Assembly: GCF_006345805.1 (NCBI RefSeq)
Contig: NC_043012.1
Coordinates: 7,626,001 to 7,690,000 of the forward strand
Source of the DNA: Octopus sinensis
Lineage: Eukaryota
DNA: 64,000 nucleotides
Direction: 5' to 3'
In this document: positions 44,321 to 46,111 of the stretch, in pieces
How positions within the stretch are numbered: position 1 is the first letter of the stretch
Layout of the letters: each line of letters begins with the position of its first letter
Translations under genes and position numbers: made by a program
The notes under the pieces: model-generated
Told to the model about the DNA's origin: nothing
Databases searched by the model: none
What the model saw: only the letters and a program-made list of their open reading frames with translations

Positions 44321-44819
44321 GAAAAGTTTATTAGTTATTGGACATATTTCAGAAAACCATCTGTAGTTTGCTCAGTTGTTGTTGAGGTCTACTGAAGGTC
44401 TCTGTCCAAATTTTTGTGCATCAGTGTAAAACCATTACTAAATAAATATACAGAGCTCTGTAAAACCCAACAAGTGTGAATTAAGTATTTGTTCGAGTTT
44501 CACATGGCCAAAACAAGCATGCTCTTTACCTCCACTTATATATAACATATTCATTGTTAATGATGGAAGTAGTATTAGCTCAGAATAGAACTCATTATAT
44601 CTTACTTAGCATGGATATACTGTAGAAAGCCAAAAAAAAAAAACTATGGCATTTCTAAAACCTACGGAAGCATATCAGTAGCAGGTGAAAAGTGTTCAGC
44701 AGTGGTTGTGTAATTGTTAGATCCAGATATTCTTTTATCTATTTCAGTCATTTGATTGTGGCCATGCTGGAGCACCACATTTAGTCGAACAAATCGATCC
44801 CAGGATATGTTCTTTGTAA

Positions 44820-45095
44820 TACAGTTCTGTATTTAAGAGATGAGGAATTATGTACATCATTTACAATTGACGGATATTTGTCCCCAAGATTCCGAGTTCG
44901 ATTCCAGGCAGTGACCTGAATAATAATAATAATAATAATAATGATAACAACATCGTAAAATACCTTAGGAATGAGAACCCAGGTTCGAAATTTCCCTAAG
45001 ACACCTGATGAAGGCTGGAGGGTATATCAGCTGAAACGTGTTAACAACAAACAAGATGAGGACAAATATCCGTCAATTGTAAATAAATGTAAATA
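44820..45095 (+). mobile_element. Insertion with B-box, hammerhead-like motif and inverted end (H4), inside a SINE A (44735-45352, minus strand)
   Basis: 10-bp TSD TTCTTTGTAA (44810-44819 / 45096-45105); 25-bp perfect IR 44859-44883 / 45060-45084; GTTCGATTCC at 44896-44905; ACAC-CTGATGA-A-GGCTG...CAGCT-GAAAC-GTGT at 45001-45041. Confidence 0.8.
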
Positions 45096-46111
45096 TTCTT
45101 TGTAAGCCTAGTACTTATTCTGTTGGTCTCTTTTGCCGAACCACTAAGTTACAGGGGCATAACACATAAGTTGGGGGATAAACACACACACATATATAGA
45201 CAGGCTTCTTTCATTTTCCGTCTCCCAAATCCACTCACAAGGCTTTGGTCAGCCCGAGGCTATAGAAGAAGACAGTTGCCCATGGTGCCACACAGTGGGA
45301 CTGAACCCAGAGCCATGTGGTTCGTAAGCAAGCTACTTACCACTCAGCCACATAATTTTTTTTTTTTTTTTTTTTTTGTTCTTTCATTTATTCAAAACAT
45401 ATTCTTGTTTCCTAGCAAAGCTGCTGCAACTGCAGTGTGAAGTACTCTGAGTAGTGACTCATGCATATGAGGCTTTGCATCAATATTGCTATTGTACTCT
45501 ATCCAGAATTATTGAGTACCCTTTTTTTATGTAGTTTACACAAGTGTGAAATTACCACACTTTATTTGTGTGTATTTGTAGTGTAACATATGTTTGAAAT
45601 GTTGAAATTTCAAACATATAACATAACAAGCAAGTTTGAATTAGGGGTAAAAAAACTCAAAGAAGTTACATTGTATTTTTTACTAAGAAACAGAAAGCTG
45701 GCATCTGAAGTATTCAAGAGATAGATGAACACAGATAGCCATACATATAGATGAGAGACAGCAGGGGACACACAGCAAGACTTTAAACTGGACACCAACA
45801 GATTTATTGTGAAGATTAAAAACCAATCAGTAATTTACACCAAAAATTCTGTCGTTAAATCAATTCGAAATAACTAACTTGACTTTGTAGATTATTGAAA
45901 GCATCGGTCAATATTATACAGTCTGTGATGGGGTACCAATGTTACTCATTAATTCAGATAAATGATTGTATTTGAAATGATGAGATAGTGAGCTGGTGTA
46001 GAATGAAGCTAACAAACCACTAATAAGTACTACAATATAATATGAGGGACCAGAGAAGTGATGAGGGAGTCTGGAGTGCCTGTCTTAAAGTGGCATCTCA
46101 CCAGTTTGTCT

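Follow-up and report, generated by a model that had tools for sequence, protein, structure and literature searches.

Penelope-like elements (PLEs) of the Penelope/Poseidon type encode a reverse transcriptase (RT) followed by a C-terminal GIY-YIG endonuclease (EN). In one of them, PAc of Anolis (PMC11167929), a pseudo-long terminal repeat (pseudo-LTR) with a hammerhead ribozyme inside overlaps the start of the open reading frame (ORF), insertions carry an inverted, 5'-truncated arm, a 30-40-bp tail stands at one end only, and there are two 3' ends, one of them in an A/C-rich stem-loop. The available part of PMC8557442 gives the same RT/EN order and presents as the PLE pattern an inverted copy of which only one end bears a tail of 30-40 bp. 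In the anole PLE the tail spans the interval from one internal RT start site to the other, one of the two being in an A/C-rich stem-loop, and hammerhead cleavage is dispensable for insertion (PMC11167929). Here we analyzed a 64,000-nucleotide stretch of the Octopus sinensis genome (NC_043012.1, positions 7,626,001 to 7,690,000; the window), in which a first-pass annotation had described a 276-bp insertion as a tRNA-headed short interspersed element (SINE) moved by a PLE rather than by a long interspersed element (LINE). Judged from sequence, this "SINE" is a solo pseudo-LTR of a coding PLE that carries a tRNA-derived head at the predicted promoter position.

The octopus PLE shares all of the PAc features listed above. 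Unlike PAc, it has a tRNA-derived head with A and B boxes and an (AAT)n spacer between the stop codon and the next ATG, its sense strand lacks TTTT, and the tRNA 5' end is the sharp starting point of its solo pseudo-LTRs. The schistosome elements Sm-alpha and Sj-alpha likewise combine a tRNA-derived head with a hammerhead at very high copy number and RNA polymerase III (Pol III) reportedly transcribes them; the available parts of PMC2770079 and PMC6765202 describe them as noncoding and often tandem, whereas the octopus unit lies within a coding PLE and forms asymmetric head-to-head pairs. The TRIMp3 elements Cassandra, Helenus and Ajax (Kojima 2024, PMC10886601, available part) also place a small-RNA-derived, Pol III-type promoter in a terminal repeat, but they are non-autonomous LTR elements that have a PBS (primer-binding site) along with a PPT (polypurine tract). 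In octopus the head is in the coding element's own terminal repeat, and instead of two true LTRs, a PBS and PPT, and target-site duplications (TSDs) of 4-5 bp, we found a pseudo-LTR architecture and TSDs with a median length of 8.

Octopus tRNA-derived SINEs, with a tRNA-derived head like that of our unit, are the subject of Ohshima and Okada 1994. The short form described here may be catalogued as an octopus SINE there or in Repbase, Dfam or SINEBase. Our search of the open literature, which did not extend to those three databases, turned up no PLE whose pseudo-LTR carries a tRNA head, and the available parts of PMC6962438 and PMC4758252 contain nothing bearing directly on tRNA-headed PLEs. 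The tRNA-headed PLE is a real feature and a variant of known PLE architecture.

The usual expectation for coding retroelements is transcription by Pol II, and the available part of PMC10886601 argues that the autonomous partners of TRIMp3 need it. With a tRNA head where the promoter should be and an ORF free of terminators, a coding PLE puts that rule to a direct test, and with it the question whether animals can translate an RNA made by Pol III. The element also shows how a SINE-like family can arise from a PLE with no LINE tail captured. The family's arms, estimated in the tens of thousands, are a natural data set on the two RT start sites, the number of templates per insertion and in vivo hammerhead activity, and its head-to-head pairs are likely A-to-I editing substrates in octopus.

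The insertion in the window

The 276-bp insert occupies positions 44820-45095, between exact TSD copies TTCTTTGTAA at 44810-44819 and 45096-45105. Its parts and immediate context are as follows.

44735..45330 (bounds approximate), minus strand: abundant host repeat split by the insertion ("SINE A" of the first-pass annotation); context, outside the element
44810..44819, plus strand: left TSD, TTCTTTGTAA; the empty site matches uninterrupted host repeats
44820..44883, minus strand: "long" arm in inverted orientation, truncated at its 5' end, corresponding to family body 109-175 and matching a natural copy of the family at 94%
44882..44918, plus strand: 3' half of the tRNA-derived head (positions 42-78), truncated and without an A box in this copy
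44919..44951, plus strand: (AAT)n/(AAC)n spacer, of varying length across the family
44952..45095, plus strand: 144-nt body, comprising pseudo-LTR and PLE ORF start, with a predicted ATG at 44971 and the "short" 3' end as its last position
45000..45042, plus strand: minimal type-I hammerhead core, with features as in the available part of PMC4209133
45053..45062, plus strand: 5' arm of a hairpin whose 3' arm is in the tail, from folds of intact copies L133 and L136
45096..45105, plus strand: right TSD, exact copy of the left

The earlier description of an insert that splits "SINE A" and is flanked by a 10-bp duplication was borne out: when a script removed the insert and one TSD, the resulting empty-site junction was spanned by 79 of 86 BLAST matches to the fetched loci and the remainder of the window. 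The B box (GAGTTCGATTCC, 44894-44905), the spacer (44919-44951) and the hammerhead core (45000-45042) were likewise confirmed, and the cleavage triplet said to be missing from this copy is indeed absent, through a 3-nt deletion. What did not stand was the statement that the left end is a perfect 25-bp reverse complement of the right end. That perfect match, 44859-44883 against 45060-45084, is internal and starts 39 bp inside the left end. The full arm (44820-44883/6) corresponds, in reverse complement, to the 64-67 nt with which the family ends; its outer 39 bp (44820-44858) are the PLE 3' tail and have no partner in the right arm. The arm meets the head through a 2-nt CC overlap. When the intact copies L133 and L136 are folded, the tail closes a hairpin with the short 3' end inside its A/C-rich loop, by analogy to the anole PLE (PMC11167929) a candidate RT start site.

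A coding PLE carries the unit at both ends

The lead to a partner came from the flanks of five loci (L126, L136, L145, L106 and L015), where the head immediately follows the last part of an RT-GIY-YIG ORF. A DNA search with this ORF end returned 2,831 candidates, of which the best-scoring 40 were scored, and 30 of 42 matches were fetched, the query itself and two duplicates included. All 30 fetched copies ran from the ORF end into the unit, 28 with the head and 25 with the body, at a fixed distance set by a spacer of ~30 nt; the two headless copies still keep the body. The suggested search for a PLE sharing the 3' end thus found a coding partner. At the other end of the element, the body lies directly 5' of the ORF start in 9 of 10 fetched loci (6 of 7 independent ones), the family tail continues in frame into the PLE ORF (L287), and the body itself corresponds to the first ~52 codons of that ORF. 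Single loci display the arrangement: L374 reads head, AAT spacer, ATG, hammerhead, tail and ORF, stop-free over the 200 codons translated; L376 has a head-to-tail tandem junction in the order ORF end, head, body, ORF start; and L285/L287 carry the unit at both ends, as a pseudo-LTR from a partial tandem. Because the unit stands both behind the ORF end and in front of the ORF start, we read the short "SINE" as the pseudo-LTR of a Penelope/Poseidon-type element.

The coding capacity agrees with a PLE. L285 matches RVT_1 with an E value of 9e-9, DKG and YVDD-type motifs are present in the translations, and the ORF is 52-68% identical to eight RT-bearing homologs. The L287 ORF matches an independent 847-amino-acid homolog, P0007, at 47% over 101 amino acids (E, 6e-29), and the N terminus of P0007 also has the peptide that corresponds to the hammerhead core. 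In profile alignment the C terminus matches a Pfam-positive octopus GIY-YIG domain with a whole-profile probability of 100, and its fold is most like I-TevI in Foldseek (probability 0.87, but E 0.7). The zinc-finger linker that sets Neptune/Nematis apart in the available part of PMC8557442 is absent between RT and EN, where a gap lies opposite the cysteine-rich linker of L094-type families. We consider it nearly certain that the element is a PLE, and assign it to the Penelope/Poseidon type from architecture only. Several points weigh against our overall reading: the Pfam GIY-YIG profile does not match the coding family directly, the Foldseek endonuclease matches to I-TevI and T4 EndoII reach only E 0.6-0.7, no intact full-length ORF occurs among the copies seen, and all copies belong to one lineage.

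Three other candidates for a parent or partner were rejected. Neither the loci found through Pfam GIY-YIG (30, plus 10 extended) nor those of a second PLE family (30) contain the unit; they represent other families with other hammerheads. A parent with a GUC or GUA triplet was set aside as well, the genome having 48 such copies, of which the 20 fetched are all of the same short architecture. Separately, a Neptune-like PLE lies at L094:673-4374; its two long ORFs, of 479 and 781 codons, are bracketed by identical hammerhead-like motifs at a distance of 5.9 kb.

An abundant family with a tRNA-derived head and a hammerhead

Exact motifs across the hammerhead occur in the 2.7-Gb genome 4,394 times with the GUU triplet (25 nt) and 710 times without it (22 nt), against 0 for reversed controls, so the insert is neither a chance assembly nor a single-copy sequence. 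Since these 5,104 exact motifs match only 5 of 43 unselected arms, extrapolation suggests a family of tens of thousands of arms. The pseudo-LTR unit is also present in sequencing runs labelled with five organisms; that the run index names no RNA run with it was left out of the evidence. The L145 row of one alignment, which had the opposite strand, was disregarded.

Full copies of the family start with a complete tRNA-like head. By majority, 39 full heads carry the A box TGGCGTAGTGG and the B box at tRNA spacing, both well kept, and they are collinear end to end with host tRNAs (score of 48.5, versus a shuffled maximum of 30-36.5). The best match, by a narrow margin, is tRNA-Arg(TCT) among 35 sampled host tRNA sequences that cover part of the isotypes. 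The octopus SINEs OR1 and OR2 are of Arg-tRNA origin. The tRNA head claimed in the first-pass annotation is therefore tRNA derived, but the window copy holds a truncated version of it that lacks the A box.

As annotated, the ribozyme is of the minimal type-I form, to which intact copies fold at minimum free energy, and most family copies keep stem I and the GUU triplet. Its parts are stem I (GACAC/GTGTT), CTGATGA, an extra A, a 6-bp stem II and GAAA; the window copy has lost 3 nt that include the NUH triplet. The metazoan PLE hammerheads in the available part of Cervera and de la Pena (PMC4209133) likewise have a short stem I, a stem II of 6 bp, one additional base following the core, the G10.1-C11.1 pair and the palindromic CG; the octopus family differs in that ~14% of its copies have a 3-nt deletion at the predicted cut. 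The GUU triplet is also present in 5 of 10 related hammerhead motifs. Standard tools recognise neither the head nor the ribozyme: Rfam matched neither a hammerhead nor a tRNA at E ≤ 10 in the window copy and one intact copy, so that the Rfam check proposed for the hammerhead failed, and ARAGORN found zero tRNAs in the window and in 32 of 32 loci tested. The folding z-score of the isolated hammerhead is unremarkable (-0.8 intact, -0.2 window copy).

A PDB sequence search and a viral contig search each gave zero matches, and a protein search with the body peptide matched only two proteins, each containing pieces of the body. The first 26 residues of P0002, an Octopus bimaculoides dystrobrevin-beta model, derive from the element's body, representing either an exonised copy or a gene-model artefact. 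Other hammerheads were seen in passing. Another short repeat, in L252 (minus strand, near 2885) and L259 (downstream of 2400), has a minimal hammerhead with a CCGACGA core variant and GUU, and a U3-A8 core variant occurs in the genome's most abundant GIY-YIG PLE family (L038:2361, L047:2364, L051:2209 and L052).

Paired arms, two 3' ends and target duplications

We surveyed insertions at 122 nonredundant loci, 45 found by similarity to the window copy and 77 by exact patterns. Among them were 69 head-to-head pairs: 51 long/short, 5 short/short, 2 long/long and 11 unclassifiable. The long/short asymmetry of 51 of the 58 classifiable pairs departs from independence (P = 1e-9) and agrees with the PLE-type inverted end of the first-pass annotation. 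The 3' ends are bimodal, at body positions 139-149 and 171-175, about 30 nt apart, and RNA reads and DNA contigs from public runs have the same two ends with unrelated sequence beyond them. Exact TSDs of at least 7 bp surround 38 of 58 pairs, versus 4% of shuffled pairings, and reach up to 18 bp. We saw no poly(A) and no shared sequence past the 3' ends, where loose-end agreement was 0.4-0.55; in place of a LINE-type tail there are two defined 3' ends followed by a TSD or unrelated flank.

Most copies are solo or head to head, and tandem dimers are few. Rare alleles are common to both arms of one insertion more often than chance predicts (24 versus 7.4 ± 2.6 expected), yet in roughly half of the marker carriers the arms of one insertion are discordant. 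The notion of a separate RNA behind each arm in every insertion was dropped as stated, and the combination of above-chance sharing and roughly half discordance suggests insertions of both a one-template and a two-template kind.

Two further observations concern single loci. L015 and L105 have internal deletions in which RT-region sequence is joined straight to the ORF end or AAT spacer, which suggests template jumps. Over L133:1325-1620, RNA reads (X21-X23) have A>G changes at 31-36 sites and T>C changes at 27-31, whereas DNA contigs (X15) have 3 and 9, and T>C at 1438 and 1468 is found in ~25% of RNA reads versus <1% in DNA. These mismatches fit A-to-I editing of head-to-head pairs, but the RNA and DNA are from differently labelled organisms.

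Probable Pol III-type transcription from the head

If the head were a Pol III promoter, copies should begin where a tRNA-type transcript would. The 77 loci selected by pattern contain 130 arms, 59 of which extend to the head. Of these, 19 end within it, 36 at -13 to +4, and 4 continue into the ORF. Thus 36 of the 40 arms that get to the tRNA 5' end stop there, a 24-fold rise in the per-base stop rate. Solo copies without an inverted arm begin there too, in 5-6 of the 7 listed. No 5'-end cluster marks the hammerhead cut site in the same 130 arms.

The coding strand is also poor in T runs. TTTT occurs 0 times in 2,285 nt of L287 plus L285, 0 times in 2,150 nt of L271, 0 times in 1,789 nt each of L373 and L377, and once in 20,195 nt pooled over 30 copies; 23 of 25 pseudo-LTRs are free of it. 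The average over six further octopus PLE ORFs with comparable T content is 2.8 TTTT per kb (P about 0.002). No B box occupies the place of the head behind 79 of 80 related ORFs, many of whose contigs end early; one stray box lies beyond the hammerhead. From the 5' pileup and the lack of TTTT, Pol III-type transcription of the short RNAs is probable; that Pol III transcribes the whole coding element is possible but less likely than not.

Several observations count against a Pol III reading. Under a dinucleotide-preserving null, the absence of TTTT is not significant (P = 0.07 to 0.13), and TTTT-free sequence without Pol III boxes does occur, in 1 of 28 long related ORFs (L304) and in 1 of 18 stretches of ORF plus untranslated region (UTR) (L350, 1 kb). 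A class of 42 of the 130 arms ends in the AAT run and is uninformative on the start, and the -13 to -8 stop class is partly an artefact of palindromic junctions. A 10-bp hairpin straddling the 5' end of the head could stall the RT or fold back. RNA reads run in both directions equally, with no pileup of starts or ends, a pattern that fits host read-through or an unstranded, fragmented library. The L304 family was also considered, and rejected, as a second Pol III-headed, TTTT-free relative: it lacks the boxes and has T runs in the UTR. This family (loci L302-L304, L339 and L366), which consists of related PLEs of another organism, combines an ORF almost devoid of TTTT with a T-rich UTR.

The same hairpin lies at the heart of the strongest alternative, in which Pol II or read-through transcripts give rise to PLE copies with the ordinary 5' truncation, the head is a passenger left by one old SINE insertion in the 3' UTR, and the cDNAs end on the 5' side of the head through an RT stop or fold-back at the hairpin. 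PLE copies are usually 5' truncated with inverted arms (PMC8557442, available part), the hairpin straddles the head start, a discrete start is absent from the RNA reads, and the allele sharing between arms is what fold-back predicts. However, the stops fall in the 5' arm and loop of the hairpin (-3 to +4), where a tRNA-type start is expected, and not at its 3' base; the solo copies that begin there have no inverted arm; and the A and B boxes are well kept in a unit without TTTT. We judge this alternative unlikely, though a serious one.

Proposed mechanism

The best overall explanation, and a probable one, is a coding PLE with a tRNA-derived promoter head whose solo pseudo-LTRs are the SINE-like copies. 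Pol III would start a few bases before tRNA position +1 and meet no terminator within the unit. The RT-EN protein would bind the hammerhead/hairpin region and nick both target strands about 7-14 nt apart, and reverse transcription from two internal sites, one per strand, would yield the long and the short arm, as in vitro for the anole PLE (PMC11167929). The two cDNAs would then be joined head to head by microhomology, with insertion independent of hammerhead cleavage. A unit of ~280 nt would suffice for internal initiation, so that any pseudo-LTR or solo copy with an intact head could serve as a SINE-like source, and because no more than this unit is needed, short copies would far outnumber coding ones.

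That numerical dominance is what an independent family would show as well, with only 4 of 130 arms continuing into the ORF. The first-pass annotation had proposed such a family, a non-autonomous tRNA-SINE with a captured PLE 3' end, moved in trans by a headless PLE, and Sm-alpha of schistosomes offers the precedent of a tRNA-derived SINE with a hammerhead (PMC2770079 and PMC6765202, available parts). This proposal is largely refuted, and we hold it very improbable: every fetched ORF-end copy carries the unit, with the head in 28 of 30 at a fixed ~30 nt, L376 contains the tandem junction, and no headless partner was seen among the best-scoring 40 of 2,831 candidates. Mobilisation by a PLE, not a LINE, survives from it; a separate SINE does not, as the unit is part of the coding PLE. 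The family accordingly has the tRNA-derived A/B-box head of SINE2 elements but is not separate from its partner. Also dismissed, as extremely improbable, is a retrozyme-like element whose copy ends are fixed by self-cleavage of the hammerhead and by circular RNA: the core is kept, related PLEs have covarying stems (10 distinct motifs) and retrozymes have been proposed as PLE derivatives (bioRxiv 10.64898/2026.07.22.740005 and PMC7229834, available parts), but the copies are mostly solo or head to head instead of in head-to-tail arrays with a complete hammerhead per unit, the cut site matches neither copy end, and ~14% of copies lack the triplet.

The missing cleavage triplet

The window copy, like the other copies of the ~14%, has lost 3 nt where the GUU cut is predicted. 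This deletion outnumbers a matched loss of 3 nt in the neighbouring AAC repeat 4.9-fold (595 versus 122, with 3,600 intact). The deletion is unlinked to markers 58, 127 and 129, although linkage does exist between the flanking markers 58 and 127 (P = 7.5e-6), and this points to repeated origin. The data do not support the triplet-less form as a single subfamily, since it is present on all marker backgrounds, though partly inherited.

One possible cause, which we advance tentatively, is that the deletion is the footprint of an RT crossing cleaved RNA with use of the GU repeat on both sides of the cut. Two observations count against this: both arms carry the deletion in 6 of 12 pairs that were pattern-selected for it, and the deletion is associated with T at position 81 (36/100 versus 10/100 listed matches, counted by eye). 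Together they indicate that the deletion is partly inherited. CpG decay is higher in triplet-less copies but confounded by chromosome region, and we did not use it as evidence. Taken jointly, the boldest form of our reading would be an autonomous coding retrotransposon transcribed end to end by Pol III from a captured tRNA promoter, with a ~2.9-kb sense strand purged of TTTT and an uncapped RNA that is translated, which through internal RT initiation would be its own SINE, and whose 3-nt deletion would record RT crossing a self-cleaved hammerhead in vivo; this whole is possible rather than probable.

Elsewhere in the window, positions 45577-45631 form a palindromic hairpin with a 17-bp near-perfect stem and a weak mir-190 match far below the gathering score, probably a chance structure or a repeat remnant.
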